Positions 6,854 through 62,153 are shown, numbered from the stretch's first letter. The stretch is DNA of 62,153 nt from an uncultured Candidatus Saccharibacteria bacterium (GCA_964486155.1 CAZAKQ010000002.1:1-62153); one strand, 5' to 3'. Program-made: numbers and translations. Notes: a model not told the origin generated them from the sequence alone.

Positions 6854-6993
6854 AAATAGATTTTAAATTAATCTTTTAAAGATAATTTATCTTATAAAAT
6901 TAACTCCCTAAATATACCAAAAACAATCTTTAAATACAACGAAAAACAAAACCTGAAAAGCCAAGCTTTGAAGGTTTTGTTTTTTATTTTAAT

Positions 6994-10460: not shown

Positions 10461-10532
10461 AATTTATTTATTGAATAAATCTATAATATTAGTTATTATT
10501 ACAATTATTAAAATTAATATTATTTCTAAATT

Positions 10533-11420
10533 ATGATTTTTGAAAACTTTTTTGAAACTGTAGGGAAAACTCCAATAGTAAAATTCGATAAATATAAAGG
10601 AGCTGAAATTTTTATAAAACTGGAAGGTAACAATCCTTCTGGAAGTTTAAAGGACCGCTCTGCTAAAGCGATAATATTAGATAAAATAAAAAATAAAGAA
10701 TTAATAAAAGGAAAAACAATTCTTGATGCTTCAAGCGGAAGCTTTGCTTGTTCTATTGCTTACTTTGGAAAAATATTAGGATTTCCAGTAACGGTAGTTG
10801 CTAATTCTAAAATAACAGAAAGTAATAAATCTTTCTTAAAAATAATGGGAGCTAATATAATTTATCAAGGGAATGCTACTATTGAAGGAAATAAATACTG
10901 TACAGAATTAATAAATAAAGATTCTAATAAATACTGTTTCCTAGACCAACTAAACAATTGGAACAGTCCTAAAGCTCATTATAATACTACAGCTCCAGAA
11001 ATATTAAAAGATATACCTAATATCTGTGCAGTGGCTACTTCAATGGGTTCTGGAGCAACATTATGGGGGTTAAGTAAATATTTAAAAAAACATAAATCTG
11101 ATATAAAAATAATTACTTCCTATGCCAAAAAAGGATCTAAAATAGCAGGAACTTTTCTCGAAGGAACTGATTATAAATCTCCTTTTATCAAAGAGATTTG
11201 GAAAAATAATTGGATAGATCATATTGGTTATGTAAACTTTGAAGAAGCTTTAAAATCAGCTCAATATTTAGCTCAAAAAGGTTTTTTTGTAGGTCCTCAG
11301 ACAGGAGGAGTTTTAGTAGCAATGTATGAAGCTATTGATAAATTAAATATCCAAGGGAAAGTACTCATTATATCAGGAGATTCTGGATGGAAAAATTTAC
11401 ACAAGCTAGCATATCAATAA
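10533..11420 (+). CDS. PLP-dependent cysteine synthase family enzyme
   Basis: NPSGSLKDRSA lysine motif and a GxGGT-like loop (GPQTGG) of fold-type II PLP enzymes. Confidence 0.75.
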   Translation: MIFENFFETVGKTPIVKFDKYKGAEIFIKLEGNNPSGSLKDRSAKAIILDKIKNKELIKGKTILDASSGSFACSIAYFGKILGFPVTVVANSKITESNKSFLKIMGANIIYQGNATIEGNKYCTELINKDSNKYCFLDQLNNWNSPKAHYNTTAPEILKDIPNICAVATSMGSGATLWGLSKYLKKHKSDIKIITSYAKKGSKIAGTFLEGTDYKSPFIKEIWKNNWIDHIGYVNFEEALKSAQYLAQKGFFVGPQTGGVLVAMYEAIDKLNIQGKVLIISGDSGWKNLHKLAYQ

Positions 11421-23979: not shown

Positions 23980-24172
23980 GTTCTTTATTGTAACAAAATA
24001 AATAGTTAATTCAATCAAATTCTAACACCCCATCCGTTAAAACTAAAAAATTCTACTAGTCCAATTAACTGAACTAATTTACTCCATTTAAATGGAATAT
24101 TTGAATTACTTATAATTATTAATTAACCTTTTTACCTTACAAATACAAAATAATCCAAAAATTAAACACAGC

Positions 24173-24212
24173 TCAATTAGATTATTCCAATTAATTGGAA
24201 TAATCTAATTGA
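24173..24212. repeat. 40-bp perfect palindrome (core tattCCAATTAATTGGaata)
   Basis: Base-by-base symmetry checked. Degenerate relatives lie at 24054-24100. Confidence 0.9.
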
Positions 24213-24286
24213 ATTTTTTCCAAACCAGAGACGAAAAGCTTTAGCTTTTCGTCTCTTTAACGTTTAATCCACATTAATTTTAGCGT

Positions 24287-25756
24287 CTATTCTTTATGAT
24301 TTTCTGAATCTAATTTTGTAGTATAACTCATTCCTACTACGGCGACTAAAACAATTCCTCCTAACACAAAACTCCATTTATTTATAGGAAATTTAAAACC
24401 TTCTTCTTTTTTAGCTTCTCCATTGTCATTCATAATCTCGGAAGGTTCAACCTCCCGAGATTTACTAATTGTGGCAATTTGATTATTTGAGATATTTTCA
24501 ATCTTATCTACTGGTTTTTCTACTGAATATAAAACAGGAACTTTTGGAACTACTTCAACTTCTTCTTTAATAAAGCTAGAGACTTCATTTTTTATATTTG
24601 AATTTTCTTTTTTTTCAAAATTAAAAGCTAATATACCATTTGGATAAAGTAATTGAACAATTGAATTTTCTTTTGGTAATAAACCGCTAACACTATAAGG
24701 TAATTTTAAGTAACTCTTTGGGAGTAAAATAGTGTTTTTAGGCAAAGTAAAATAATTATTATCTACTCTCAAACGCCACCAAGATAAATTAATTTCATAT
24801 TTAGAAGAATTATAAAGCTCTATAAAATTATCATTAAAATCTATTTTAACATTAGAAATAATTATTTCTGAAGGAATTACTTCTATTTTTAATTTATCAC
24901 TAGTAGAATATTCTCCTGAAATAACTTCTAATACAAGCATATATTTACCTGGATAAGCATAATTATGTAAAACACTTTGTCCTTTTCCTTTAGTTCCATC
25001 TCCAAACGACCATTGATAAAGAGCGTTTTCCAAAATTTCATTTTCCAAACCAAGAGCTTTTCCTGAAAAAGTAAAATCAGCTCCAACAATAGGTAAATAT
25101 TCTAAAGAATCAATTTTAGCCTTTATATTTACTTCAATAAATACTGGATTTGTACTTTGAGAAGAAGTAGGTGTAGGTTCTTGTATTTTTTCAAATACAG
25201 ATCCTTCTTCATTTTCAATATTTTCTATAAAGTTAATTTTTCCTAAACTAGGACTAGAAGATATCCACTCTCCAGAAATTTTTTGTAATGATTTTCCATC
25301 TCCATTAGCTCCCCAATCAGACAAATAATCAACAGAATCAATATCTATTAAATCTAAGTTTCTTATAACTAAAAGTTCGCCTGAGTTTTTTAAAGAAAAA
25401 GATGTATCTAAAATCAATCCTGCAAAATTTGGATTATCTCCATAAAATTTATCAGGATTATCTACTAAAATTGCATAATCTCCTCCAGACAAAATAGTAT
25501 TTCCTCCTTCTGATATAGATTTTATTTTATGATTGGTTTCTGCTTCATATAATTTCCACTTACTCAAGTCAACATCACTAGTTCCTGAGTTATAGACTTC
25601 TATCCACTCTCTTCCGCTATCACTCCCTATCTCTAAATCATACATTATTTCAGTAATTTCTATTTGAGCTAAAAGCAAATTAACTGGATAAAATAAAAAA
25701 CAAAAAACGACTGTTATTAGTCGTTTTTTATTTAATTTTAAAAACAATTTAAACAT
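24287..25756 (-). CDS. surface protein with lamin-tail-like (LTD) and PKD-like domains and a C-terminal TM anchor
   Basis: ITEIMYD..EWIEVYN and FIELYN..WWRL LTD-like segments, a WSFGDGTKG PKD motif, a signal peptide and a C-terminal hydrophobic helix. Confidence 0.65.
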   Translation of the reverse strand: MFKLFLKLNKKRLITVVFCFLFYPVNLLLAQIEITEIMYDLEIGSDSGREWIEVYNSGTSDVDLSKWKLYEAETNHKIKSISEGGNTILSGGDYAILVDNPDKFYGDNPNFAGLILDTSFSLKNSGELLVIRNLDLIDIDSVDYLSDWGANGDGKSLQKISGEWISSSPSLGKINFIENIENEEGSVFEKIQEPTPTSSQSTNPVFIEVNIKAKIDSLEYLPIVGADFTFSGKALGLENEILENALYQWSFGDGTKGKGQSVLHNYAYPGKYMLVLEVISGEYSTSDKLKIEVIPSEIIISNVKIDFNDNFIELYNSSKYEINLSWWRLRVDNNYFTLPKNTILLPKSYLKLPYSVSGLLPKENSIVQLLYPNGILAFNFEKKENSNIKNEVSSFIKEEVEVVPKVPVLYSVEKPVDKIENISNNQIATISKSREVEPSEIMNDNGEAKKEEGFKFPINKWSFVLGGIVLVAVVGMSYTTKLDSENHKE

Positions 25757-27533
25757 CTTCTTTAGGTTTTTCTACATATAATATATCTTCTAAATCTTTT
25801 TTAGAAACTTCTTTATTTTGATTTTGTTCTAATACTTCTTTTGATTTCTGAATTATTGTATTCTCCTGCTCATTTTCTCTTTTAGAATTTAATGAAGACA
25901 TAGTTTTTTGTTGATGTGAGTTTTGTTTTACTGAATTCGTTTGTTTTGAAACTTCTAACCCATCTACAAATTGCTGATTAGACGATTTAAGTTCTTGTGA
26001 TTTGTTGTTCTTCAACTCCAAATTCTTCATCGCTTCAGAAAGAGCTTCTTTCAACTGATTTTTATTATCAATAGGAATTTTAGTTCTTGTTGACTTAGAT
26101 TTTAAATGACTAGTTTTGTTATTAGACAAATCTTTTAAAGAAATCTTTTTATTTTTTAATTTAGAGTAAGTTTGGATCTTAGGAGCACTTTGTTTAAAAT
26201 TATTTTTGTTAGATTGTATTTTAGTTTTAGCAATTATTTTAGTTGAATTAAGCCATTCTTCAATTTTTTCTTCCACCATTTTTTTAGGACTAGCAAAATT
26301 TTCACGAGAATATTTTATTATTTCATCTTTATATGAAAAATCTGGTTTAGTAATAGGAGGAAGAGTTCTTGCAGAAAAAGGATTAGAACCTATTCCATCA
26401 ATCATCAGTCTCAAATAAATTTGAGCAAAACCTAAATTAACCAAATCTTCAGCTGTAAATTCGGGAGAAAATTCTTTTTCTAATTGTTCGGCATCTGTAG
26501 CTCCTACTCTAAAAGTAATCATAGTTCCTACGTTTCCAAACACAGCAGCACGGACTACTTCGGGCATTTGTTCAATATATTGATGAGCTAAAGTCAAATT
26601 TAACTTGTATTTTCTAGCTTGAGATAATATATCAGCGAAAGAATCATTAGCTAGATTCTGAAATTCATCAATATATAAATAAAAATTAGGAAGTTTCGCT
26701 AATTCTTCTGTCCTTACATCGGCCCTACTCATCGCAGCTAAATATATCTTTGTAGTTAACATAGAACCTAATAAATCCGCGTTAGCTTCGCCTACTTGTC
26801 CTATAGAAAGATTAACCAAAAGAATCTTTTTACTATCTAAAACATCTCTAAAATCAAAAGAAGATTTTTCTTGCCCTACAATATTTCTAATTAAAGGATT
26901 AGAAGTAAATTGTCCCACTTTATTTAAAATAGCAGCATAAGCATCTTTTCTATATCGCTCATCCCATCCAGCAAATTCTTCAGTCCAAAAAGCTTTAACG
27001 GAAGGATCAGTAATATTAGCTACTACTTTTTTCCTATATTTAGCATCCGTAAATATTTTAGTCATTCCTAACATAGTAGATCCTGGATATTCTAAAAGAG
27101 CCAACAAAGTATTATTAGTAATATGTTCCATTCTATCCGAAAAAGTATCCTCTCCCCAAATCTTTTTAAAAGCAGAAAGAAGCCCTTGAGCAACTAAATG
27201 TCTTTTATCTGGACCAACATCTTCCATCACATTGAAAGAAATAGGATTATCAACATCAAAAGGAGCAAAATAAATTACATCTTCAATTCTCTCTTCAGGG
27301 ACATAATCTAAAAACTTTTTAATAGATTGCCCATGGGGATCAATAAAACACATACCATTTCCTTCTTTAATATCTTGAACAGCCATATTTTCTAACATAG
27401 TGGACTTTCCCATCCCTGTTTTACCTATAACATAAATATGTCGTGTTCTGTCTGAAGCTTTAATCCCAAAAGGAGTTCGTCTATTTCGTCGATCAATTTC
27501 AGCAAAATATGTAATTGAGTTAGTATCTTTCAT
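25749..27533 (-). CDS. TraD/VirD4-like (FtsK/HerA superfamily) P-loop ATPase with a low-complexity tail
   Basis: Walker A GKTGMGKST and Walker B LYIDEFQN. No N-terminal TM. C-terminal ~170 aa are K/N/S/Q-rich. Confidence 0.65.
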   Translation of the reverse strand: MKDTNSITYFAEIDRRNRRTPFGIKASDRTRHIYVIGKTGMGKSTMLENMAVQDIKEGNGMCFIDPHGQSIKKFLDYVPEERIEDVIYFAPFDVDNPISFNVMEDVGPDKRHLVAQGLLSAFKKIWGEDTFSDRMEHITNNTLLALLEYPGSTMLGMTKIFTDAKYRKKVVANITDPSVKAFWTEEFAGWDERYRKDAYAAILNKVGQFTSNPLIRNIVGQEKSSFDFRDVLDSKKILLVNLSIGQVGEANADLLGSMLTTKIYLAAMSRADVRTEELAKLPNFYLYIDEFQNLANDSFADILSQARKYKLNLTLAHQYIEQMPEVVRAAVFGNVGTMITFRVGATDAEQLEKEFSPEFTAEDLVNLGFAQIYLRLMIDGIGSNPFSARTLPPITKPDFSYKDEIIKYSRENFASPKKMVEEKIEEWLNSTKIIAKTKIQSNKNNFKQSAPKIQTYSKLKNKKISLKDLSNNKTSHLKSKSTRTKIPIDNKNQLKEALSEAMKNLELKNNKSQELKSSNQQFVDGLEVSKQTNSVKQNSHQQKTMSSLNSKRENEQENTIIQKSKEVLEQNQNKEVSKKDLEDILYVEKPKEDV

Positions 27534-27643
27534 TAAGATAATTATATGATAAAAAGATAAAAGTTGGAAGTAGTTGATAAATAAATAGAAAGCCTATACA
27601 ATGATAAATAGAATGTACCAGTAACTTAAAGAAAGGATATTAA

Positions 27644-28021
27644 ATGAAAATTACATTGCTTGAAGAAAAAGAGACAGAACAAATTTCATCTTATTCTTGT
27701 ATTTTAGGAGAAAACAATTCTGAAGATATCATTATCATAAAAGATGATGATAAATATCTTTTTATATTTCCCTACAATTATATAGAAAAATATATGAACA
27801 AATACACTGAAGATGAAATATTTATTCGTATCTGTGAAGTTCCGTTGAAACAAAAAGAAAAAGCTATTTGGAAATTTCCTCTTCGGGATAGAAACGGAAA
27901 CGAGTATGCCAAATTTTATCCTAATGAAAAAATTATCGAAACTCTAAAACAATATGGAAAAGAAAATAATCTTCAAAATCTTGTTGACTTAATAAATTCT
28001 ACTCCAATGATTTCTCTTTAA
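27644..28021 (+). CDS. hypothetical protein
   Basis: 125-aa ORF followed by a strong terminator hairpin (28035-28063). Confidence 0.45.
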   Translation: MKITLLEEKETEQISSYSCILGENNSEDIIIIKDDDKYLFIFPYNYIEKYMNKYTEDEIFIRICEVPLKQKEKAIWKFPLRDRNGNEYAKFYPNEKIIETLKQYGKENNLQNLVDLINSTPMISL

Positions 28022-28034
28022 CAAAAACTCCCTG

Positions 28035-28075
28035 CCCTGAACACAAAATATTAGTGTTCAGGGCTTGTTTTATTA
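28035..28075 (+). terminator. rho-independent terminator
   Basis: Stem ccctgaacac / gtgttcaggg followed by cttgtttt. Confidence 0.6.
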
Positions 28076-28163
28076 AAACCTCCAAAATCAAAAACCTTTA
28101 TTATAGTATTACATATACTATAATAAAAAATAAACTCCAAAACAAAAAACAATCTAATCACCT

Positions 28164-28189
28164 ATTTAGTCCAGTTAACTGGACTAAAT
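28164..28189. repeat. 26-bp perfect palindrome, core tagtCCAGTTAACTGGacta
   Basis: Symmetry checked base by base. Confidence 0.9.
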
Positions 28190-28321
28190 TTATAATTTAT
28201 ATTTCAAAAACATAATTTCTTATAATTTACTATAATTTATATATAATTTAAGACTTATTAATTTAAACGACCTAAATTGATTATATTGTAAATCTATTAT
28301 TAATAATAAAAACCTATTTTT

Positions 28322-28363
28322 TAAAACCCTACTAGTCCAGTTAACTGGACTAGTAGGGTTTTA
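28322..28363. repeat. 42-bp perfect palindrome, core tagtCCAGTTAACTGGacta
   Basis: Symmetry checked. Lies 26 nt 3' of the HTH gene stop, so it may double as a terminator. Confidence 0.9.
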
Positions 28364-28388
28364 TTTTTTAATTTTTGTTTATATTTAT

Positions 28389-28820
28389 TCAATTTCTTTT
28401 CTTGTATTTTTCATCTATTTGATTTAGAAAATCCCATCTACCTTTTCCTACAATCGGGGGCATTCCACATTTTAAAACAATCTCCATTCCATCCCAAAAA
28501 GTAACTCTGTTCTTTTTCTTTTCTACCATTTCTAAAATATTTTCATATTTGTCAAAATCAATATCATTAGCTACTTTAATTACTGTAGATTTACTTACAC
28601 TTAAAATTTTATGAATACGATACATAGATACTTTTTCGTATAACATAAAAATTATAGATAGTCGTTTAGCTAAAACTATTTTTTCAGATTCTGTTAATAA
28701 ATCATCTAAAAATCCTTTAGCTGAAGTATTAGTTTCCAAATCAGCAACAATATTAACTAAACGACTATTTATTTTGTTCGAAACATTTTTCTTTAATTTA
28801 TTTTTTGAAACATTAACCAT
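28389..28820 (-). CDS. TrpR/YerC-like helix-turn-helix protein (paralog 1)
   Basis: LLTESEKIVLAKRLSII..YRIHKILSVSKSTVIKV resembles the TrpR-family HTH. Paralog at 35706..36152. Confidence 0.6.
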   Translation of the reverse strand: MVNVSKNKLKKNVSNKINSRLVNIVADLETNTSAKGFLDDLLTESEKIVLAKRLSIIFMLYEKVSMYRIHKILSVSKSTVIKVANDIDFDKYENILEMVEKKKNRVTFWDGMEIVLKCGMPPIVGKGRWDFLNQIDEKYKKRN

Positions 28821-28846
28821 AATAATTTAATTAATTATAACATATT

Positions 28847-28868
28847 TTAGTCCAGTTAACTGGACTAA
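28847..28868. repeat. 22-bp perfect palindrome, core tagtCCAGTTAACTGGacta (candidate operator)
   Basis: The palindrome starts 27 nt upstream of the HTH gene start codon. Its centre is 63 bp from the centre of the next copy. Confidence 0.85.
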
Positions 28869-28907
28869 TTTATGGTAATTTGTTTTTTATAAATTTTAAT
28901 TTTACTT

Positions 28908-28933
28908 GATTAGTCCAGTTAACTGGACTAATC
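28908..28933. repeat. 26-bp perfect palindrome, core tagtCCAGTTAACTGGacta
   Basis: Symmetry checked. Confidence 0.9.
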
Positions 28934-29037
28934 TTTCTTAATTCTTAAATCCTAAACTTGCCCGCCAGCAAGCAAGTCTTAAATCTTTAAATTAATAAAA
29001 AAATAGAGAAGTTAAACCTCTTCATTTAAAAAAATTT

Positions 29038-29079
29038 AATAATTAAAATACTCCATTTAAATGGAGTATTTTAATTATT
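29038..29079. repeat. 42-bp perfect palindrome, core tactCCATTTAAATGGagta
   Basis: Symmetry checked. Lies 3' of the 29122 gene. Confidence 0.9.
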
Positions 29080-29121
29080 TTTAATTTATCATTTTTAATT
29101 TAAAATAATTTTAATTCAAAA

Positions 29122-30303
29122 TTATTTCTCATGTAGTGCTTCTTTAGTATACCGATTAGAAGCCGACCACAAAAACCAAGAATCTAATCCTGCATCATAA
29201 GTCGCTTGAATTTGAGCTCTAACTTTTGCTGCATCGTAATCAGCTCCTAAATCAAAATCTTGCAACCAAGGTCTTAATTTATCAGGGCTTGAACTAGCAT
29301 TTAAGGTTTTTTCTACTGCTTTGTCCATTGAATATTTAATTACCTGATACGGATGAGCCGCTGGGTTAGATAAACCAATAAATCCAGAAGGATAATGAGA
29401 AGGATAAACCATCGGACAAATATAATCAAAAAATGGTAAAGCATATTCTAAAATTTGACCAATATTTAAATCATCATCGTTAGTAGTCACCATTCCAAAT
29501 AAATCTGCAGAAAGCACTGCTTCGGTACTACCCATCTTGTTATTTAAATATACAAAAAATTCTTGCAAAACTTTAGCTTTACCTTTTTCAGGATCTAAAG
29601 TCACTCTTTCTTCACTTACAGGATAATAAATTTCTTTCATATTTCCATCAGAAGGAAAACGAATATAATCATAATTAATTTCATCAAAACCTAAATTATA
29701 AACTTCCTTAGATAAGGTAATAATATAATCCCAAACTTCTGTAGATCCTGCATCCAACCAAGAAATCCCCTTATAATCCTTCCAAATTTCTCCTCCTTTA
29801 CTTCTTTTTACAGCCAAATCGGGTCTTTCTTTTACTAAATGTGGATCTTGAAATACAGGAATTCGTCCAATAATATAAATACCTTTTGAATGCCAATTAT
29901 CAAGCAAAGCTTTTATATCATGAATCTTACATTCACCTTTGCTAGAATCTGCAATAGCATTTTTAAAGATAGGATTTTTTATGTCAAAAGCGATTTTCCC
30001 CGTTTCATCTTTAACATTTAAAATAATTGAATTTATTTCTGTATCTTCTACTAATTGTTCAAGGCTTTTTCTAAAATTAGAAGTACTGGCTGCACAAGCG
30101 GTCATATAAATAACCTTTGTTTTTTCAGGTGTTTTTATGTGCTTTACTTTTATAGATTTTTCTATTGTTTCATCTAATCCTATCGCATTTTTAAATTGAA
30201 TAATAAAGGGTTCTGAAATATTTTTTGAAAAAAACAAAAATAAAGTGATGCACAGAACACCACCTAAAATAATAAACACTAAAATTTTTAATTTATTCTT
30301 CAT
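29122..30303 (-). CDS. putative glycoside hydrolase-like TIM-barrel protein (DUF4015/GHL10-like)
   Basis: GFDEINYDYIRFP motif and an N-terminal TM/signal. Start taken at MKNKLKILV; the longer ORF-track start overlaps the upstream small ORF. Confidence 0.65.
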   Translation of the reverse strand: MKNKLKILVFIILGGVLCITLFLFFSKNISEPFIIQFKNAIGLDETIEKSIKVKHIKTPEKTKVIYMTACAASTSNFRKSLEQLVEDTEINSIILNVKDETGKIAFDIKNPIFKNAIADSSKGECKIHDIKALLDNWHSKGIYIIGRIPVFQDPHLVKERPDLAVKRSKGGEIWKDYKGISWLDAGSTEVWDYIITLSKEVYNLGFDEINYDYIRFPSDGNMKEIYYPVSEERVTLDPEKGKAKVLQEFFVYLNNKMGSTEAVLSADLFGMVTTNDDDLNIGQILEYALPFFDYICPMVYPSHYPSGFIGLSNPAAHPYQVIKYSMDKAVEKTLNASSSPDKLRPWLQDFDLGADYDAAKVRAQIQATYDAGLDSWFLWSASNRYTKEALHEK

Positions 30304-30511
30304 TTTTATAATTTTCCACAAAAACTTGATTATACTCACTCTTTTCTTTAATTTGTTTTTTATTTTTATCTTTTTTATTAAAAACCAAAGCCTGATAAAC
30401 AATATAAAGACCTATTATAATCAAAGACCAAGTTTTCCAAACTACAGGGATACCCAATAACGGAATCAATACTACTATTATACCTGCAATTAAAAATTTT
30501 TTCATATTCAT
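30293..30511 (-). CDS. small two-TM membrane protein
   Basis: 72 aa with two hydrophobic helices. Overlaps the downstream start by 11 nt. Confidence 0.4.
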   Translation of the reverse strand: MNMKKFLIAGIIVVLIPLLGIPVVWKTWSLIIIGLYIVYQALVFNKKDKNKKQIKEKSEYNQVFVENYKNEE

Positions 30512-30707
30512 ATGGTATTATTATATCACAAGAATATTTAAACACTAAATTAATGTAAAAATAAAGAATTAAATTAATAATTAACGATAGTATATACTAT
30601 AGTATATACTATGATATATACTAAAAATGAAAAAGCTCTGATTATTTCATTATTTCAATTGATTGAAATAATCTTTTTTTCTTTTATAAACCTTACAGTG
30701 CTTTAAT

Positions 30708-31394
30708 CTAACTTATTACCACCACAAACTCTCCTTTTATTTTACTTGGATTATTTTCAAAATATTTTAATACTTCATTGATATCTCCTGAAATAACTTG
30801 TTCAAATATTTTCGTTAATTCTCTTGCAATAACAATTTTTTTAACTTTTTTAGTAATTTCAGATAACTCTTGGATCATTTTTAGAGTTTTTAAAATTCTA
30901 TGAGGAGATTCATAAAATACAGAAGTTCTTTTTGATTCTAAAATTTCATTAATTATAGTCTGTTTTCCTTTTTTTCTAGGTAAAAAACCAAAAAAAGTAA
31001 AAGAATCTGCTGGTAATCCACTAATTGATAAAGCAGAAATTAAAGCTGAAGGTCCTGGAATAGGAGAAACAATTATATCTTCTCCAAATTTTTCTTTAAC
31101 TTGGGAAATTAATTGAAACCCAGGGTCTGAAATCGTAGGAGTCCCAGCATCAGAAACTAAAGCTAGGTTTTTACCTTCTTCTAATAACTCTAAAATTTTA
31201 TCTGTTTTGATTTTTCCACTAAAAGAATGATAAGAAACTGTTGGAGTTTTGATTTCGTATTTGTCTAAAAGTTTTCTTGTTACTCGAGTATCTTCACACA
31301 ACACAAAATCCACTTCTTTGAGAATTTTCAAAGCCCGAAGAGTAATATCTTCTAAATTTCCTATAGGTGTTGCTACTATGTATAAATTTGACAT
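30708..31394 (-). CDS. rsmI: 16S rRNA (cytidine1402-2'-O)-methyltransferase
   Basis: LYIVATPIGNLEDITLRAL..CEDTR N terminus typical of RsmI tetrapyrrole-methylase-fold enzymes. Confidence 0.85.
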   Translation of the reverse strand: MSNLYIVATPIGNLEDITLRALKILKEVDFVLCEDTRVTRKLLDKYEIKTPTVSYHSFSGKIKTDKILELLEEGKNLALVSDAGTPTISDPGFQLISQVKEKFGEDIIVSPIPGPSALISALSISGLPADSFTFFGFLPRKKGKQTIINEILESKRTSVFYESPHRILKTLKMIQELSEITKKVKKIVIARELTKIFEQVISGDINEVLKYFENNPSKIKGEFVVVIS

Positions 31395-31523
31395 AATTTT
31401 ATTTAATAATACCACTTTTTAAGCAATGTTTAAACCAAATCACTCAAAGGATGTTTTGTCATTTGCGACCTTAAATGCTCAGCACTCGCCATTAAATAGA
31501 TAGTGGTTGTTTTTAAAATTGTT

Positions 31524-31563
31524 AAGTAAAGTGTTAAGTAACTTGTTACTTAACACTTTACTT
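31524..31563. repeat. 40-bp perfect palindrome (aagtaaagtgttaagtaac...)
   Basis: Symmetry checked. Lies between the tRNA cluster and rsmI; possible terminator. Confidence 0.85.
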
Positions 31564-31630
31564 TTACCTTTAAAAAATATCTTAGAATAGTAGAGTAAAT
31601 TGAACCTACCTACCCTTAAACTCAAGTCTG

Positions 31631-31658
31631 ATTATACGATTATATATAATCGTATAAT
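31631..31658. repeat. 28-bp perfect palindrome (attatacgattata|tataatcgtataat)
   Basis: Symmetry checked. Confidence 0.85.
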
Positions 31659-31672
31659 TCTTATCTGCATAT

Positions 31673-31724
31673 AAATTAAAATCTTTATTACTCCAATCGA
31701 TTGGAGTAATAAAGATTTTAATTT
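31673..31724. repeat. 52-bp perfect palindrome, core tactCCAATCGATTGGagta
   Basis: Symmetry checked base by base across 26 pairs. Confidence 0.9.
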
Positions 31725-31733
31725 TGATTTCAC

Positions 31734-31767
31734 TGAACCACCTATGAGAATCAAACTAACGACCTAT
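31734..31767 (-). pseudogene. degenerate copy of the tRNA-Thr(CGU) T-arm/3' end
   Basis: ataggtcgttagtttgattctcataggtggttca compared with the tRNA's gtaggtcatgagttcaattctcatcttcggct. The T stem has a mismatch, and there is no 5' half. Confidence 0.4.
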
Positions 31768-31782
31768 AGTTTATCCCGTTAG

Positions 31783-31855
31783 AGCCGAAGATGAGAATTG
31801 AACTCATGACCTACGCGTTACGAGTGCGTTGCTCTACCAACTGAGCTACTTCGGC
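31783..31855 (-). tRNA. tRNA-Thr (anticodon CGU)
   Basis: Cloverleaf folded by hand: acceptor gccgaag/cttcggc, anticodon loop ctCGTaa, T arm atgag-ttcaatt-ctcat. Confidence 0.85.
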
Positions 31856-31861
31856 TAAATG

Positions 31862-31934
31862 AGCCCGAGGGCAGGATTGAACTGCCGACCTTTCGCTTAC
31901 CATGCGAATGCTCTACCAACTGAGCTACTCGGGC
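31862..31934 (-). tRNA. tRNA-Thr (anticodon GGU)
   Basis: Acceptor gcccgag/ctcgggc, anticodon loop atGGTaa, T arm ggcag-ttcaatc-ctgcc. Confidence 0.85.
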
Positions 31935-32014
31935 TGATTCTTATATCTTATTTTATTTTAGGTTTTTTTGCAAAATGAAAACCAAAGTATATAACTTTAG
32001 TTTTGTTTAAATTT

Positions 32015-32220
32015 GCGCGATCGAAGGGACTTGGTCACTCTCGTGGATATTTATTTCGTGCTTTGCACTCATAAATATCTCACTCCCTTGACCTCCACTC
32101 GGCGATACGACTCTTTCGCTTCGCTACAGAGTCGGCTTCGCATCGCCTCGGTTCAAGTCCATCATCGCGCTAAAACAAAAGTCACCCAACACTATCGTAT
32201 TGGGTTCCTTTGTTTTATGC
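32015..32220 (-). other. tRNA-3'-end-associated structured module A (candidate ncRNA or miniature integrative element)
   Basis: The 20-nt sequence at 32015-32034 is identical to 32219-32238 (tRNA-Asp T-loop to 3' end). An inverted copy lies at 32151-32172. Hairpins at 32047-32080 and 32110-32134. Confidence 0.65.
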
Positions 32221-32295
32221 GCGATCGAAGGGACTTGAACCCTCAACCTCTCGCGTGACAGGCGAGTGCTCTAACCAAATTGAGCTACGACCGCA
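32221..32295 (-). tRNA. tRNA-Asp (anticodon GUC)
   Basis: Acceptor gcggtcg/cgatcgc, anticodon loop ctGTCac, T arm gaggg-ttcaagt-ccctt. Confidence 0.9.
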
Positions 32296-32344
32296 AATTT
32301 ATACTGCAATACTTTAACAAATTTTTATATTTTTCTCAATACTG

Positions 32345-32418
32345 TGTCGACGAATGGATTCGAACCATTGATCTGGCGCGTATGAGACGCCCGCTTTAAC
32401 CAACTAAGCTACGCCGAC
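32345..32418 (-). tRNA. tRNA-Met (anticodon CAU), elongator type or Ile2-type
   Basis: Acceptor gtcggcg/cgtcgac with a paired 1-72, anticodon loop ctCATac. Confidence 0.8.
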
Positions 32419-32507
32419 AATTAACCAATAATATAGCATATTTAGTTAAATAATTAAACACTCCTCCAAACAAAAACAACCCAATTGGGTTGTTTTTGTT
32501 TTACTTG

Positions 32508-32578
32508 TTGCGGGAGCCTGACTTGAACAGACACCTGGAGGTTATGAGCCTCCCGTGCAACCTTTACACCATCCCGCG
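32508..32578 (-). tRNA. tRNA-fMet (anticodon CAU), initiator-like
   Basis: C1-A72 mismatch (cgcggga / tcccgca), anticodon stem ggagg/cctcc, loop ctCATaa, T loop ttcaagt. Confidence 0.7.
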
Positions 32579-32790
32579 ATATACTATTTAGTTTTAAAAC
32601 AAATTTATTCTTGTAACTCATAACCAAAGGTTATGAGTCTATGGATCCTATCGCGTGCAACCTTTACACCATCCCGCGATATACTATTTAGTTTTAAAAC
32701 AAATTTATTCTTGTAACTCATAACCAAAGGTTATGAGTCTATGGATCCTATCGCGTGCAACCTTTACACCATCCCGCGATATATTTAGTT
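32554..32790. repeat. 100-bp tandem repeat, about 2.3 copies, each containing the 5' 25 nt of tRNA-fMet
   Basis: 32554-32653 is identical to 32654-32753. A third partial copy starts at 32754 and has a 3-nt deletion. Confidence 0.9.
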
Positions 32791-33050
32791 AGTTAGATAT
32801 TAGGTAATTAGGGAAAAATTGCTTTGCAATTTTCATTACCTTCTTAAAAACTCTAAACTCTTTTTCAACGCTTAAAATATACAGTAAAAACACTCAAAAA
32901 GCAAGCAAAAACTGTCTTTAAATGAAAATTTCAACAACTCAAGTCGTTGAGCCGTTGAAACATTTAATGGCTTTAAATAAAGCTAGAATTCATTAATTTT
33001 TAATTTAGCATTTTTAATTTTTAATTTGAAATATTTTGTAAAAATATTTC

Positions 33051-33638
33051 TTAGATATATTGAAATTCTTCAAATACAGTTTTATATAAACCAACAGCTC
33101 TTTTTGCTGTTCTTTGTGTTAAAAGAGAATCAGAACCTTCATGAGCTACTTGATTTCTTATTTTATGAGCTTCCCAAGCATTATCAATTGTCGTAAAATC
33201 ACTTTTTTCAACTTGTTTCAATTTTTCTCCTATACCTTCGCCCACGTATCCCATTTTAGTAATCATTTCATCTAAAATTACATCAGCATCTAAAATAGCC
33301 ATTCTCCATTCTGCCTGAGAATCAGAATTAACATAGCGCACAATTTTTTCCCATCTTTCATTTTTAATTTCAACAAATTCAGAATCTCCAGCTGAAGAAA
33401 CAACCGTATCAAATATTTCTGAATCTTTTTGTGCCACAGGTTTCATTTTATACCGAACATATAAAATTCCAATCAACAAAACAACTGAAATTAAAAAAGA
33501 ATAAAACATAATAAAAGACCAATTATCATAATATATATTCCACAATCTAATAGGATTAAAATAATAAAATAAACCTTTTATTATAAGATAAATCCAATAA
33601 TATATTTGTTCAATATTTAAAAAATCAACATATTCCAT
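33051..33638 (-). CDS. membrane-anchored protein with a HEPN-like (DUF4145-like) C-terminal domain
   Basis: N-terminal TM segments. C-terminal AHKIRNQVAHEG contains an R-x4-H motif. Confidence 0.5.
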   Translation of the reverse strand: MEYVDFLNIEQIYYWIYLIIKGLFYYFNPIRLWNIYYDNWSFIMFYSFLISVVLLIGILYVRYKMKPVAQKDSEIFDTVVSSAGDSEFVEIKNERWEKIVRYVNSDSQAEWRMAILDADVILDEMITKMGYVGEGIGEKLKQVEKSDFTTIDNAWEAHKIRNQVAHEGSDSLLTQRTAKRAVGLYKTVFEEFQYI

Positions 33639-33724
33639 AACATAATTATAACATTAAATCATTAAAACATTAAAACCCACCTGCCGACAGGCAAGATTGA
33701 TGAAAGAATGCTTTATATTTGAGT

Positions 33725-35149
33725 TTAATTCAAAAAATCTTTAGAAACTTTAAATAATAACTCTTCCTGCATATGCGGAGCTAAAATCTGTAAACCAACC
33801 GGTAGATTTTTCCTCTCTCTTTCTACAGTCCCCATTGGAATAGATATAGCAGGATTTCCTACTACATTTGAAGATACCGTAAAAATGTCTTCCAAATATA
33901 ATTGAACAGGGTCATCTATTTTTGAACCAATTTTAAAAGCTGGAGTAGGAGCAGTCGGCATTAAAATAATATCTATATCCGAAAAAGCTTTTTTAAAACT
34001 TTCTTTTATTTTAGATCTTACAGCTTGAGCTTTTTTATAATAAGCATCTTTATATCCTGCTGATAAAATATAAGTTCCTAACATTATTCGTCTCCGAGCT
34101 TCTTTTCCAAAACCTTGACCTTTAGTTTTTAGATAATCTTCTAAAAGATTATCTCCTTCAATTTTCAAGCCATACCGAACTCCATCAAAACGAGCTAAAT
34201 TAGCAGAAATTTCAGCTGGAACTATTATATAATAAGCAGCCAAAGCATACTCTATATTTTCCAATTTAATTTCTTTAACTTCATATCCTAAAGTTTTAAA
34301 TCTTTCAATTGATTCTTCAAATCTTTTCATTACGCCTTCATCTAATCCTTCTTTCAAAAAATGTCGAGGAATTCCAATTATTTTTCTTTTATTTAAATCT
34401 ATTTTTTGTTCCTCTTTTTGAGTAATTTCATCTTTCAAAGTAGTACTATCCATCTTATCTTCACCTTTAATACAATCATAAACTATTTTTATATCTTCAA
34501 TATTTTTAGCAAAAGGTCCTATTTGATCAAAAGAAGATCCCATGGCTACAGCACCTGATCGAGAAACTCTTCCATAAGTAGTTTTTAAACCTAAAACTCC
34601 ATTCAAAGAAGCCGGTTGACGAATTGAACCTCCAGTATCAGATCCTAAAGCTACTAAAGCCATATCCATAGCTACTGCTACAGCAGAGCCTCCTGAAGAA
34701 CCTCCAGCCACTCTTTCTAAATCAAAAGGATTTTTCACCACTCCATAAGCAGAATTTTCAGTTGAGGTACCATGAGCAAATTCATCCATATTAGTTCCTC
34801 CAATAAATACTACCCCCTTAGCTTTTAATCTCTTAATTACAGTAGCATCATAAGTAGCTTTATAATTTTCCAAAATTTTTGAACCTGCTGTTGTTCTTTT
34901 CCCTTTAATTAAAATATTATTTTTTATTGCTATTGGTATCCCTGTCAATAATTCAGCTGTTCCGTTTTTAAACCTTTCGTCAGCTTTTTTTGCTTGTTCT
35001 AAAACATCATCAAAAACCTCTATAAAAGCATTCAATTTTGGATTAATATTATCTAAATAAGCTTGAGCTAATTCCTGTGCTAAAAAATCACCATTTTTCA
35101 TAGCTTCATGTGCTTTTTTTATTGTTAGTTTATGCAAATCTATTTTCAT
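33725..35149 (-). CDS. gatA: Glu/Asp-tRNA amidotransferase subunit A
   Basis: Amidase signature GGSSGGSAVAVA and GSDTGGSIRQPA. Confidence 0.95.
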   Translation of the reverse strand: MKIDLHKLTIKKAHEAMKNGDFLAQELAQAYLDNINPKLNAFIEVFDDVLEQAKKADERFKNGTAELLTGIPIAIKNNILIKGKRTTAGSKILENYKATYDATVIKRLKAKGVVFIGGTNMDEFAHGTSTENSAYGVVKNPFDLERVAGGSSGGSAVAVAMDMALVALGSDTGGSIRQPASLNGVLGLKTTYGRVSRSGAVAMGSSFDQIGPFAKNIEDIKIVYDCIKGEDKMDSTTLKDEITQKEEQKIDLNKRKIIGIPRHFLKEGLDEGVMKRFEESIERFKTLGYEVKEIKLENIEYALAAYYIIVPAEISANLARFDGVRYGLKIEGDNLLEDYLKTKGQGFGKEARRRIMLGTYILSAGYKDAYYKKAQAVRSKIKESFKKAFSDIDIILMPTAPTPAFKIGSKIDDPVQLYLEDIFTVSSNVVGNPAISIPMGTVERERKNLPVGLQILAPHMQEELLFKVSKDFLN

Positions 35150-35250
35150 ATTTATTAATTTAGAGGTCCGACCTCTTTAGATTATTTATTTAAATCTTTA
35201 AGCAAAACCATGTTAAAGCAAATTTAGAGGTCGGACCTCTAAATTATTTC

Positions 35251-35529
35251 TTACAGAATCTTCTTAACCTTAACATACCCTTTTTGAGTTTCTGGAGCTT
35301 CAATTAAGATATCATTACTAAACTCTCCTCCTATATAAGGATTATTATCTTCTCTCATAATATTTTGTAAATCACCTGCTTCATATTCTAAATCCCCTGT
35401 TTTAACTTTCTGAATTTGATCTATAAAATCTAAAATAGAATCCATTTCATTCAATAATTCTTTTTTTTCATTTTCTGTTAACTCTATTCTGCAAAGTTTT
35501 GCTAAATTTTCTATATCTTTAATTTCCAT
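35251..35529 (-). CDS. gatC: Glu/Asp-tRNA amidotransferase subunit C
   Basis: 92 aa, LAKLCRIELTENEKKEL..MREDN pattern, directly upstream of gatA. Confidence 0.85.
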   Translation of the reverse strand: MEIKDIENLAKLCRIELTENEKKELLNEMDSILDFIDQIQKVKTGDLEYEAGDLQNIMREDNNPYIGGEFSNDILIEAPETQKGYVKVKKIL

Positions 35530-35649
35530 AATTATTAGTATAATCTAAAAATATCTTTTTTGAAACACCTTCAACTATAAAATGTTAATTATAAATCTAT
35601 CCAAACACACAAAAACTATATCAAACCATCAATAACAATAAAACAAAAA

Positions 35650-35677
35650 CAATTACCCCAGTTAACTGGGGTAATTG
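35650..35677. repeat. 28-bp perfect palindrome, core taccCCAGTTAACTGGggta
   Basis: Symmetry checked. Lies 29 nt 3' of the HTH paralog 2 stop. Confidence 0.9.
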
Positions 35678-35705
35678 AACGAATTTATAATATCTAAAAT
35701 TACAT

Positions 35706-36152
35706 CTATTTCTTATTCTTATATTTTTTAATATTATATTTTTCATAAATTTCATCTAAGATATTCCATTGCCCCGCTCCTACAATAGAAGGTATCCCCA
35801 TTTTTAAAACCAAATCCATTCCTTTCCAAAAAGTCATTCTATTTTTTCTCAGTCTAACTATTCTCAAAATATATTTATATTTATCTAAATTAATATCTTG
35901 AGAAACTTTTTTTACAGTAGTATCACTTACCTTTATCAATTCAGAAATTCTATACCAACTTAAATTTTCTTGAAGCATAAAAATGATAGCTAATCTCTTT
36001 GCTAAAGTTATTTTTTCTGACTCAGTTAACAATTCATTTAAAAAGTTCTTTGTAGAGGAATTGGTTTCTAAACTAGTAATTACATTAATCAAACGATTAT
36101 TAATATGCTCAGAAACACCTTTTTTTAATTTTTGTTTAGAAACATTAACCAT
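35706..36152 (-). CDS. TrpR/YerC-like helix-turn-helix protein (paralog 2)
   Basis: MVNVSKQKLKKGVS..LLTESEKITLAKRLAIIFML. About half the residues match paralog 1 by eye. Confidence 0.6.
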   Translation of the reverse strand: MVNVSKQKLKKGVSEHINNRLINVITSLETNSSTKNFLNELLTESEKITLAKRLAIIFMLQENLSWYRISELIKVSDTTVKKVSQDINLDKYKYILRIVRLRKNRMTFWKGMDLVLKMGIPSIVGAGQWNILDEIYEKYNIKKYKNKK

Positions 36153-36230
36153 AAAATTATTTAAATTAAAATTTAATAAATCCTATTTTTTTAATTTTTA
36201 ATATTTCAATCAACTTATTTAATATTCTAA

Positions 36231-36264
36231 CACAATACACCCCAGTTAACTGGGGTATATTGTG
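36231..36264. repeat. 34-bp palindrome (one mismatched pair), core caccCCAGTTAACTGGggta
   Basis: Upstream of HTH paralog 2. Confidence 0.85.
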
Positions 36265-36411
36265 GGTAATTATTTTCTAAATTTTATTTAAAATATGAAA
36301 ATAATTGTAAAAAGCAATGACTTAGCAAAACTTTTAGAAAACTAATTTAATTAAATTAAAATTAATCAGACTTAATATCAACATAAAACAGAAAATACAA
36401 AAATTTAACCC

Positions 36412-36445
36412 CTTATATTACCCCAGTTAACTGGGGTAATATAAG
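36412..36445. repeat. 34-bp perfect palindrome, core taccCCAGTTAACTGGggta
   Basis: Symmetry checked. Confidence 0.9.
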
Positions 36446-57411: not shown

Positions 57412-57641
57412 AAAACCAAAGCTATCTGCTTTGGTTTTAAGTATTTTAAATTCAGGACTCGGTCCCCAGTTCTAAGTTCAGACTTCGTCCTTCGGAACTC
57501 GTCTTCACTAAGAACTCTTGACCTCGCTCAGTCGTATTTCCCTTCACTTCGTTACGGGAAATTTACTCCTTCGTTTCGAGTCCTGCCACACGCTAAAATA
57601 CTAAAAACCAAAACTAAACGCTTTGGTTTTAAGTATTTTAG
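57412..57641 (-). other. tRNA-3'-end-associated structured module B
   Basis: Inverted copy of the tRNA-Ile 3' end at 57577-57593. Hairpin at 57536-57562. CTTGACCTC at 57517-57525. Distal direct copy of the T-loop segment plus terminator hairpin at 57412-57461. Confidence 0.6.
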
Positions 57642-57714
57642 TGCGTGTGCCAGGACTCGAACCTGGGACCACAGAGGTATAAGCTCTGCGCTCTACCAAC
57701 TGAGCTACACACGC
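57642..57714 (-). tRNA. tRNA-Ile (anticodon UAU)
   Basis: Acceptor gcgtgtg/cacacgc, anticodon stem cagag/ctctg, loop ctTATac, T arm ccagg-ttcgagt-cctgg. Confidence 0.85.
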
Positions 57715-61338: not shown

Positions 61339-61752
61339 GGGAGTGACAGGCTTCGATAAATAAATTCTTTTTAAATATGCAAAGAAAGCTGAATTAACTT
61401 TCAAACTGATTCAACTAGATAAGTGCAGACTTAACTAAGAAAGCAGGGAGAACGGTTTCACCTTACTTCACTGCTCCAGCTTTGGCATTCGCTTAATTTT
61501 TTAAACGAAAAGACCAATTATCGCAATTAGCGACTGGTGTCATATAGATGAATTTCTAAATAATCTATACCGGCATAATAATTTTAGAATATAGAAATTT
61601 AATTTTTTCGCCAAATTTCCGAAACTCAGAAAATCGAGACTATAAGGTTTTGTTTATTTCTTACTTATTTTCTTTAAACTGAAAAATAATCTAACTTTGT
61701 AGAATTATTTAAAAACTTTATTTACACGAGAGTTCGATTCTCTCCACTTCCA
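61339..61752 (+). ncRNA. ssrA: tmRNA (SsrA)
   Basis: 5' gggagtg pairs with 3' cacttcc, including a G3-U70 wobble. Conserved ggcttcga near the 5' end. Tag frame ends ...APALAFA-TAA. T arm gagag-ttcgatt-ctctc. Confidence 0.85.
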
Positions 61753-61945
61753 CAATAAAATAAAGAACAGGCTCTAATGCCTGTTTTTTGTTTTATCTGC
61801 ATGGAAACAGAGAAGATAATCGAAAGACGGAAGAAAATCCGAGATTTTCTGAGTCCGGGCAGGAGCCACTTAATAAAATATAAGTGAGTTTACGAACGAA
61901 ATATTTTATCTTAGTGAGCTGACGCCGATTCTCTCCACTTCCACA
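61753..61945 (+). other. tmRNA-3'-end-associated structured module C
   Basis: The 20-nt sequence at 61926-61945 is identical to 61735-61754 (tmRNA T-loop to 3' end). A terminator at 61766-61795 is followed by a degenerate inverted copy and an AT-stem hairpin similar to module A. Confidence 0.6.
61766..61795 (+). terminator. rho-independent terminator of ssrA
   Basis: aacaggc-tctaat-gcctgtt followed by ttttg. Confidence 0.7.
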
Positions 61946-62153
61946 TCTTCACCAAATCCTTGTAGTACAAGCTCAACTAAACCATTCGTTAGATTGGTTT
62001 TTTGTTTAAAATCCAGAAGCTCCCTAATTATATTTAACACCACAATAAACTTTTAACAGTGTTGCACTTCAAAAGTTAATTTAAGTTATTATCTGAACAA
62101 GTTCACATACATATTAGACTTTTCTGGCAAAAAATCTAATGAAACAATTTAAT

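Follow-up and report, generated by a model that had tools for sequence, protein, structure and literature searches.

The gene for transfer-messenger RNA (tmRNA) near the end of a 62,153-nt stretch of DNA (CAZAKQ010000002.1:1-62153 of assembly GCA_964486155.1; termed the window, with positions counted from its first letter) is followed by a small insert, module C, which is bounded by two perfect 20-nt copies of the 3' end of the gene. This insert probably represents one copy of a family of non-coding, non-autonomous insertion modules of the Candidatus Paceibacterota, within the Candidate Phyla Radiation (CPR), that has entered the gene between nucleotides 55 and 56 of the T loop. Several elements of this interpretation are directly supported by our analysis, namely the membership of module C in the family, the fixed point and orientation of insertion, the derivation of the arms from the target, a single-stranded structure under selection, patchy presence, tandem accretion and the lack of a linked recombinase. 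On this reading, the 20-nt repeats are not the attL and attR attachment sites of a decayed integrase island.

The tmRNA gene and its duplicated 3' end

The target gene, ssrA (tag ADLTKKAGRTVSPYFTAPALAFA), was located on the plus strand at 61339-61753 by ARAGORN and at 61339-61755 by the Rfam model RF00023 (59 bits). Reading its 3' end directly places the T loop TTCGATT at 61733-61739, the 3' strand of the T stem at 61740-61744, the 3' strand of the acceptor stem at 61745-61751 and the discriminator at A61752. From these positions it follows that the first copy of the 20-mer CGATTCTCTCCACTTCCACA, at 61735-61754, extends from C56 of the T loop to 2 nt past the discriminator, in agreement with the original prediction made from this DNA. 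The perfect recurrence at 61926-61945 reported there also holds: the 20-mer is present exactly twice in the 62,153 bases, with 0 mismatches between the copies, a spacer of 171 nt and no third site in the window even when up to 3 mismatches are allowed. Chance, or a simple local slippage duplication without wider meaning, has only the shortness of the repeat in its favor and a negligible probability. In 100 dinucleotide shuffles of the window there were 0 matches to the 20-mer, and none with two copies, and homologous modules recur at more than 120 loci at least, so that this explanation is already refuted.

Architecture of module C

The first copy of the repeat (A1; 61735-61754, plus strand, as are all the elements of module C) is the functional 3' end of the tmRNA. 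It is succeeded by a terminator, T1 (61755-61799), comprising a hairpin at 61766-61785 (AACAGGC/GCCTGTT), a T run and a mirrored AT trailer, which forms the apex of a long palindrome made up of A1 and the inverted arm A'. A terminator scan returned the T1 stem on the minus strand only, and the plus-strand terminator was read directly from the T run; the same layout recurs at three of the collected loci (denoted by L and a number), namely L008, L010 and L011. The inverted arm A' (61802-61822; tGGAAacaGAGAagatAATCG), recognized in the sequence itself and in the family and covariance-model alignments, is a degenerate reverse complement of the tmRNA 3' end, and the AA that comes next, at 61823-61824, complements T54 T55.

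The first element of the core is the hairpin P2 (61826-61855; GAC-GGAAGAAAATC-CGA-GATTTTCTGA-GTC), which contains a tandem G.A internal loop and is nearly identical to P2 in L008 and in the second module of L010. A GGG junction and a long hairpin, P3, occupy 61856-61925, the latter with a 9-bp AT stem (61873-61881/61901-61909) and a 19-nt loop, AAGTGAGTTTACGAACGAA. P3 terminates in ...CTGACGC and abuts the second copy of the repeat (A2; 61926-61945), which represents the displaced or duplicated 3' segment of the target and starts at C56. The minimum-energy fold of 61800-61950 is a three-way junction. All internal features that had been listed for the spacer, i.e. the terminator, the inverted tmRNA end, the agaaaatc-cga-gattttct hairpin within 61826-61855 and the 9-bp AT stem, were recovered.

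A family of tRNA-linked modules

A covariance model, R1, built from 44 metagenome copies without any window sequence and run on the window without filters, gave exactly three significant matches. These are module D at a tRNA-Ile gene (59.5 bits, E=4e-15), module C itself (44.3 bits, E=1e-10, over the full model length 1-126) and module A at a tRNA-Asp gene (17.6 bits, E=0.006), with the next best match in the window at 11.8 bits (E=0.29). Module C has diverged, but its membership in this large family is significant. The original prediction had grouped it with modules A and B. The kinship with A stands, as the one R1 model matches both, whereas 'module B', at tRNA-Met (32551-32850, minus strand), has a different structure and no R1 match. 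It consists of 100-bp tandem units, each carrying the first ~27 nt of tRNA-Met and a hairpin formed by the anticodon-loop sequence and its inverse (actcataacc/ggttatgagt), and may reflect a different, anticodon-loop-directed event. The alternative that had been set against this grouping, in which the spacer would be ordinary att-flanking DNA unrelated to the other modules, fails because R1 establishes the relation of module C to A and D.

Module A (31995-32191, minus strand; covariance model and nhmmer) follows tRNA-Asp (32219-32294) and has a 20-nt direct repeat, caagtcccttcgatcgcgca. Module D, a third true member that was absent from the original prediction, lies at 57421-57615 on the minus strand after tRNA-Ile(UAU) (57641-57714), and was delineated by nhmmer, the covariance model, the sequence itself and comparison with an empty site in L010. 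Its terminator has been duplicated as well, both copies resembling the single native terminator of that empty site, and its right arm is shortened to 9 nt (cgagtcctg).

Inserts homologous to module C, alignable with both C and A, follow the tmRNA gene in L008 and L010. Further copies outside the window were detected by nhmmer at tRNA-Ser (L009), at tmRNA and tRNA-Ile (L011) and at tmRNA (L015), and a degenerate pattern for the P3 hairpin retrieved at least 120 additional metagenome loci and more; over all collected loci nhmmer gave 177 matches. The loci L080-L199 were fetched by means of this pattern inside P3, and the unbiased evidence is accordingly that of the covarying stems and of the independent copies in the window, L008-L011 and L015. 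The 126 modules with a tRNA or tmRNA gene within 300 nt on any strand are strongly oriented: the gene lies immediately 5' on the same strand in 117, 3' on the same strand in 6 and on the opposite strand in 3. The target genes comprise at least 20 tRNA identities in addition to tmRNA, and the right arm A2 begins exactly at C56, directly after a conserved ...AACTCGTGAC, in about 75 of the 96 tRNA-linked modules of other genomes. This bears out the proposal that the tmRNA repeat obeys the same boundary rule as that of tRNA-Asp.

The order of elements is constant across loci: the gene up to T55; A1, from C56 to the 3' end and usually including the trailer or terminator; A'; the core; and A2. The arm A' is the reverse complement of A1 and extends over T54 T55 as the 'AA' of ..AATCGAAAG. 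The core, usually ~100-130 nt long (78-209 nt across the measured modules), contains in turn P2a (3 covarying base pairs), a GGAG/CGAG tandem-GA loop, a variable hairpin P2b, GGGG, the irregular conserved helix P3a (GTCGAGAGTACTTAG / CTTAGTAACTCGTGAC) and a variable hairpin P3b, and ends in ...GAC immediately before A2. In many copies an extra small GC hairpin splits A' near the boundary between the acceptor and T stems. From this constant order we conclude that the 20-nt repeat is the target duplication of a small non-autonomous element; the target gene stays intact because its 3' segment sits on the gene side.

A shorter subtype, which escaped both the nhmmer profile and the P3 pattern, is seen 3' of tmRNA in more distant relatives (L022, L024, L025, L029 and L043). 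Here the terminator is followed by the inverted acceptor strand, a small GC hairpin, the complement of the T stem, a single long hairpin and a direct copy from ~G57/C61. Orphan modules occur at L084 (8529-8673 and 9183-9323), L128 (2495-2642) and L177 (10900-11126), where the upstream copy is a degenerate tRNA-Tyr-like 3' fragment (..GTCGAACCAACTCCAGCTCGGCGCAC) without a tRNA gene; the L084 unit occurs twice, each copy ahead of a divergent gene. With respect to described families, a search of the window with Rfam 15 at the gathering threshold returned only the tRNAs and the tmRNA, and relaxing the threshold to E<=10 gave only chance-level matches on 61700-62000 and on the L010 array. Literature searches on the motif, on tRNA-linked elements in the CPR and on miniature integrative elements yielded no description of such modules. 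The family has apparently remained undescribed so far.

Derivation of the arms from the local target

The arm sequences differ with each tRNA, and the same core subtypes sit at different tRNAs. The inverted arm complements the 3' strand of the gene, as an A is found in it at the position of the tmRNA's G in the G3.U70 pair (L011, L010), an observation that also rules out the left arm being a leftover of the tRNA 5' half. Of 74 direct repeats, 33 extend as far as the tRNA end and 11 overrun it by 5 nt or more, into trailer or terminator sequence; in L126, as in module D of the window, the terminator has been duplicated. The idea of a primer-binding site, with arms copied from mature tRNA, was also discarded, as the palindrome runs into the trailer and the CCA is not copied.

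The same pattern is found at a target other than a tRNA or tmRNA gene. In L174 (126-403) a module is located inside the 3' end of a protein-coding gene, at the site GGCA|CGAAGAC, where it is associated with an exact 64-nt duplication of coding sequence and a 5' arm, GTCTTCG+TG, complementary to the local sequence spanning the insertion point. The encoded protein, with a C-terminus that is cysteine-rich and zinc-finger-like as read by eye, acquires a new C-terminus as a result (..HKLEKAK* in place of ..HKLEKARIDAKGK*). A pre-formed attP site cannot account for this locus, because of the duplication of the open reading frame (ORF) and the locally complementary arm. Both arms decay in the family at large, with a median perfect run of 12-13 of 19 nt and many indels, and look like scars rather than maintained helices.

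Conserved fold and loop types

Prediction by RNAalifold on the alignment of 44 sequences also yields a three-way junction. Paired cells amount to 93.6%. Shuffling of the columns brings this down to 79.5%, none of the 500 shuffles attaining the observed value, and sliding of the partner to 30-42%; the covariation score is 0.374 as against 0.117. Double changes are found in 16 of the 31 pairs, with one P2a pair being GC in 14, AU in 11, CG in 11 and UA in 3 sequences, and a G80.U146 wobble in P3a is kept in 39 of 44. Of 148 comparisons of hairpins, 132 show the sense strand to fold more stably than the antisense. The structure is under selection, on one strand.

The loops of the modules (n=165) include 75 triloops and 38 of the type C(GNA)G, but only 3 GNRA loops and 1 UNCG loop, and all 39 occurrences of GCGNAGC are on the sense strand, with 0 on the antisense strand. 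The latter motif forms an extraordinarily stable mini-hairpin in DNA, known from single-strand DNA priming sites, whereas the RNA versions, exemplified in the review by r(GCGAAAGC), are considerably less stable (PMC13037366). The confinement of GCGNAGC/GNA mini-hairpin loops to the sense strand makes it more likely that the core is folded as DNA than as RNA. By-eye comparison of the junction with the hammerhead, the kink-turn (K-turn), the C/D box, the bulge-helix-bulge intron and the splice-site rules of group I and II introns revealed no fit; the P2 internal loop is only K-turn-like, with a 1-nt bulge.

Classical integration and the search for linked enzymes

Genes for tRNAs are classic landing pads of integrases. 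Accordingly, the repeats might be interpreted as the attL and attR of a T-loop-targeting (P4-like) tyrosine integrase, with the insert being an attP-only miniature or a deleted remnant akin to a cis-mobilizable element (CIME), mobilized in trans, and the core providing arm-type protein sites. Direct repeats of the 3' part of a gene do flank the insert, as att sites would, and a block of identity that starts in the T loop and stops just beyond the 3' end is reportedly, following Williams in 2002, the textbook signature of integrases in tRNA and tmRNA genes. The tandem arrays of modules, the identity of L090 and L145 up to GAC|CGATTC, beyond which they are unrelated, and an allele switch in L011 that resembles a crossover inside CGAGTCCTGG can all be read in the same manner. 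Islands at tmRNA genes with 20-nt repeats are likewise known in Dehalococcoides (PMC3146451).

Against this stand the lack of enzymes and the nature of the arms. There is no integrase, transposase or reverse transcriptase among the Pfam-annotated genes of the window, consistent with the original statement that no gene lies between the repeats, and no integrase was found beside any of ~170 modules. Xer-like recombinase ORFs number only 5 in 1.8 Mb of module-bearing loci, none of them less than 1.9 kb from a module. More generally, no ORF is associated with the modules, and the adjacent reverse transcriptase that characterizes retrons is lacking. Three motif scans of 2.9 million viral contigs gave 0 matches to the module motifs, and the hypothesis of a viral attP was rejected. 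Instead of a fixed attP of their own, the modules have arms matched to the gene at which they sit, which holds for at least 20 tRNA types. A conservative recombinase cannot yield this pattern, because the same core subtypes are found at many tRNAs with locally matching arms. The 64-nt duplication of a protein-coding target in L174 points in the same direction, and the freely covarying stems and strand-specific mini-hairpins suggest a folded single strand rather than protein sites on duplex DNA. Taken together, these observations render classical integration quite improbable.

Presence, absence and allele exchange

Three of the eight tRNA and tmRNA genes in the window are filled. The tRNA-Ile site has a module in the window and in L011 and none in L010, where the empty site shows the native A and terminator, while the tRNA-Ser site has a module in L009 and none in the window. 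The tRNA-Ile locus of L008 (~6930-7081) and L009 (~6870-7020, minus strand) contains no module and shows a different rearrangement instead: the tRNA-Ile(UAU) gene has a different acceptor/anticodon-stem allele, and ~45 nt downstream lies a fossil that preserves the window-type allele between the anticodon loop and the 3' end, along with the native terminator. A whole gene has been replaced here, and a 3' fossil left behind.

In L010 four tandem modules of alternating subtypes follow the tmRNA gene, and arrays of different subtypes of this type fit repeated insertion at a regenerated site. Two tRNA-Ile alleles meet in L011 (4330-4682, minus strand): one (catgtgc in the gene and the inverted arm) extends over gene, terminator, inverted arm and core, and the other, of the L008 type (tacgccc), over the right arm and trailer. 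Because of this difference in allele, the block of gene, terminator, inverted arm and core seems to be exchangeable as a unit, with the junction within CGAGTCCTGG.

Two further loci bear on the boundaries of the modules. L090 was considered as a case of an island inserted at the right arm and rejected, as housekeeping genes are all that it carries for 3.7 kb and a second repeat is missing; it is probably the result of a deletion. L101 (1-3200) has an exact 127-nt terminal direct repeat, indicating either a 3,073-bp circle or a repeat-bounded contig, and holds a module without a tRNA, a DUF3800 gene and small unknown ORFs; neither a replicase nor an integrase was found on it.

Weighing host function and mobility

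The conservation of the fold raises the alternative that the modules are not mobile and serve the host, either as a structured transcript whose closing helix copies the tRNA acceptor and T stems (for cutting by RNase P or Z, or as the ligand of a tRNA-binding protein) or as a single-stranded DNA (ssDNA) signal such as a priming site, with the arms kept by selection or gene conversion. The covariation and the sense-strand bias would be expected of such an element, as would the near-invariance of P2 across three genomes and the presence of a tmRNA-linked module in all five of the closest relatives with sequence at that position. The GC hairpin that splits the inverted arm lends many copies a tRNA-like outline, the inverted arm of L011 matches the current gene and not the fossil right arm, and mini-hairpin DNA at single-strand priming sites offers a precedent for a DNA signal (PMC13037366).

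On the other hand, the modules are patchy both among close relatives and among the tRNAs of a single genome, and a closing helix is not maintained, given that both arms decay freely. Neither the tandem arrays of mixed subtypes nor the copy inside an ORF has a functional rationale, a strong terminator stands ahead of the module, and there are almost none of the GNRA and UNCG loops that typify functional RNAs. A host-functional element is hence rather unlikely.

Several observations nevertheless count against the interpretation of the modules as mobile insertions, or qualify it. The tmRNA-linked subtype has almost the same P2 in three genomes whose SmpB identities are 74-81%, a finding that fits long-term purifying selection in place, as for a host function, as well as mobility. 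Copies at different tRNAs within one genome have a similarity of 0.59-0.68, as compared to 0.67 +/- 0.08 for random pairs, and because they are no more alike than random pairs this comparison provides no sign of recent transposition bursts. No excision product, pair of empty and filled alleles with identical flanks, or partner enzyme was found, and we infer the mobility of the modules from their distribution. L174 is the sole non-tRNA insertion found. The invariance of P3a in L080-L199 is by construction, because these loci were fetched through the P3 pattern. The argument for DNA over RNA is one of loop statistics only, and in module C itself both strands fold equally well. Finally, co-transcription with the gene, should it be needed, would be weak because the strong terminator separates the two.

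Proposed mechanism and its implications

With respect to how an insertion module of this kind might operate, we propose that the core would act as a folded single strand, more likely of DNA than of RNA, whose juxtaposed 5' and 3' ends would be joined at a staggered break at T55|C56 by enzymes supplied in trans. Template switching or fill-in synthesis across the break could then generate the direct and inverted copies of the target (A1 and A'). Extending this line of thought, we tentatively raise the possibility that the modules constitute a new kind of bacterial mobile element, i.e. a protein-free ssDNA module of ~100-130 nt (core 78-209) with GCGNAGC mini-hairpins, which would home to the universally conserved T loop, at T55|C56, of any tRNA or tmRNA gene, be sealed into the break there with its ends held together and have the 3' end of the gene rebuilt by direct and inverse copying, through a transposition or repair chemistry not described so far.

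A different route to a similar outcome would be a retroelement resembling the short interspersed elements (SINEs), in which RNA of the core is copied by a reverse transcriptase acting in trans from a nick at T55|C56 (target-primed), a staggered second nick yields the long variable duplication, and a snap-back or template jump at the quasi-palindromic TTCGAA yields the inverted arm. This would agree with the precise 3' junction and the variable 5' side (terminator, filler, extra hairpin, and an inverted arm of 7-30 nt), with the variable target duplication of ~19-66 nt, with the placement of the modules in the transcribed orientation of the gene (117 of 126) and with their non-coding nature. 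Reverse transcriptases of diversity-generating retroelements (DGRs) and group II introns are common in the CPR, and this too would favor such a route. However, no reverse transcriptase is linked to the modules or annotated in the window, the terminator in front restricts the template RNA, the loops bear the signature of DNA of the sense strand and not of RNA, a cDNA would be antisense, and additional template switches would be required for an inverted arm templated by the local target. This route therefore appears to be an unlikely one.

The insertion modules, as favored here, use the T-loop landmark with neither a gene nor ends of their own and with a copy-the-target signature, and occur in many CPR lineages, at 20 or more tRNA species. 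If they are mobile, they imply a new mechanism of insertion along with a compact, programmable-looking DNA or RNA fold that recognizes a universal sequence. If they are instead host elements, they represent an abundant, unannotated structured nucleic acid tied to the machinery of translation in a third of bacterial diversity that is poorly understood. Should the proposal of a new kind of mobile element be true, they would be SINE-like parasites of CPR tRNA genes, explaining the frequent replacement of tRNA alleles at the same loci. The modules mimic att sites and so mislead island-finders, they break assemblies, and they leave dated 'fossils' of former tRNA 3' ends that record the replacement of tRNA alleles.

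Genomic context of the module

The gene for SmpB lies just upstream of the tmRNA gene, and its nearest relatives are found in metagenome-assembled genomes of Candidatus Paceibacterota (Patescibacteria/CPR), with 81, 78 and 74% identity; the source organism is a member of this group. The genes of the window marked by Pfam have housekeeping roles: RelA/SpoT, an RND pump, glycosyltransferases, type IV pilus genes, a ligase, GatCA, RecG, FtsH and SmpB. In L009 a small GIY-YIG-like ORF (10467-10715; MQKYFVYILLSKKDKNLYVGCT..) comes directly after smpB, at the position of tmRNA in relatives, and the contig ends before any tmRNA. Elsewhere in the window, 24052-36443 contains ~10 copies of perfect palindromes of 24-30 nt, of the type TTAGTCCAGTTAACTGGACTAA / ATTACCCCAGTTAACTGGGGTAAT, which may be shared bidirectional terminators or a repeat resembling repetitive extragenic palindromic (REP) sequences.

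The flank downstream of module C (61946-62153, plus strand) comprises a weak hairpin and T run near 61979-62008, a promoter-like site and the ATG of the next ORF at 62139. All assemblies with the same SmpB stop at 62153 or 64 nt later, two assemblies stop inside module C, in the AT hairpin near 61877, and L007 diverges from the window sequence at 61723, immediately ahead of the T arm of the tmRNA, which suggests repeats or strain heterogeneity around module C. An exact scan of metagenome and viral contigs with the 64-nt extension from L001/L006 gave no match that would carry the contig past 62153, and tblastn and blastn across all the collected sequences revealed no paralogue. No island follows the module at the equivalent place in the relatives L008 and L010. 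Because all assemblies of this genome end 208-272 nt after the second repeat, there may be an additional island beyond 62153 in the genome of the window.

Comparison with known systems

By the features that define each of them, the modules belong to none of the integrase att sites, transposable elements of the miniature inverted-repeat type (MITEs), retrons or Rfam families, nor could they be assigned to the palindrome-associated transposable elements (PATEs) or to SINEs. Integrase islands and satellites (the P4-like T-loop class, the Dehalococcoides ssrA islands and CIMEs) share with them a direct repeat that is the 3' segment of a gene from the T loop, the restoration of the gene on the insert side and tandem accretion at the regenerated site. 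The modules differ in being without integrase or cargo, in a repeat that is copied from whichever target is local (one ORF and no fewer than 20 tRNA types), in having an inverted copy of the target as well, in a conserved part that is a covarying single-stranded three-way junction, and in their absence from viral contigs.

The PATEs of IS200/IS605 and other HUH elements, the attC sites of integrons and the CTX-type Xer substrates resemble the modules as non-coding hairpins with strand-specific structure and a precise end at a short target motif, plausibly active as folded ssDNA with the enzyme acting in trans. Of the features of PATEs, hairpins and a fixed site (..TT|C) are present here. However, the members of this group have fixed ends of their own and do not duplicate the target, whereas the modules duplicate 19-66 nt of it and have a 5' arm that is its inverted copy, with no Y1 transposase or integron integrase found nearby. 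MITEs, too, are small and non-autonomous, have inverted repeats at their bounds and are dispersed through intergenic DNA. In the modules, by contrast, the inverted repeats are target sequence rather than the element's own and differ with each tRNA, the duplication (~19-66 nt) is not short and of fixed length, insertion takes place at a single specific position and orientation, and no related transposase-bearing parent is known.

SINEs and other products of target-primed retrotransposition share a non-coding structured unit, a precise 3' junction, a variable 5' side, a target duplication of variable length, and an association with tRNA genes. The modules reside in bacteria, lack an A-tail or internal promoter, are inserted in tRNA genes rather than derived from them, and have a loop chemistry that points to sense-strand DNA. 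The non-coding RNAs of retrons (msr-msd, with a1/a2 inverted repeats) offer a further parallel, being units of ~150 nt in which terminal inverted repeats close two hairpin domains. The modules are distinguished from these by having no adjacent reverse transcriptase, by arms that represent the neighbouring tRNA end, by their dozens of copies at tRNA genes, and by stable mini-hairpins that lie on the sense strand and not on the cDNA strand.

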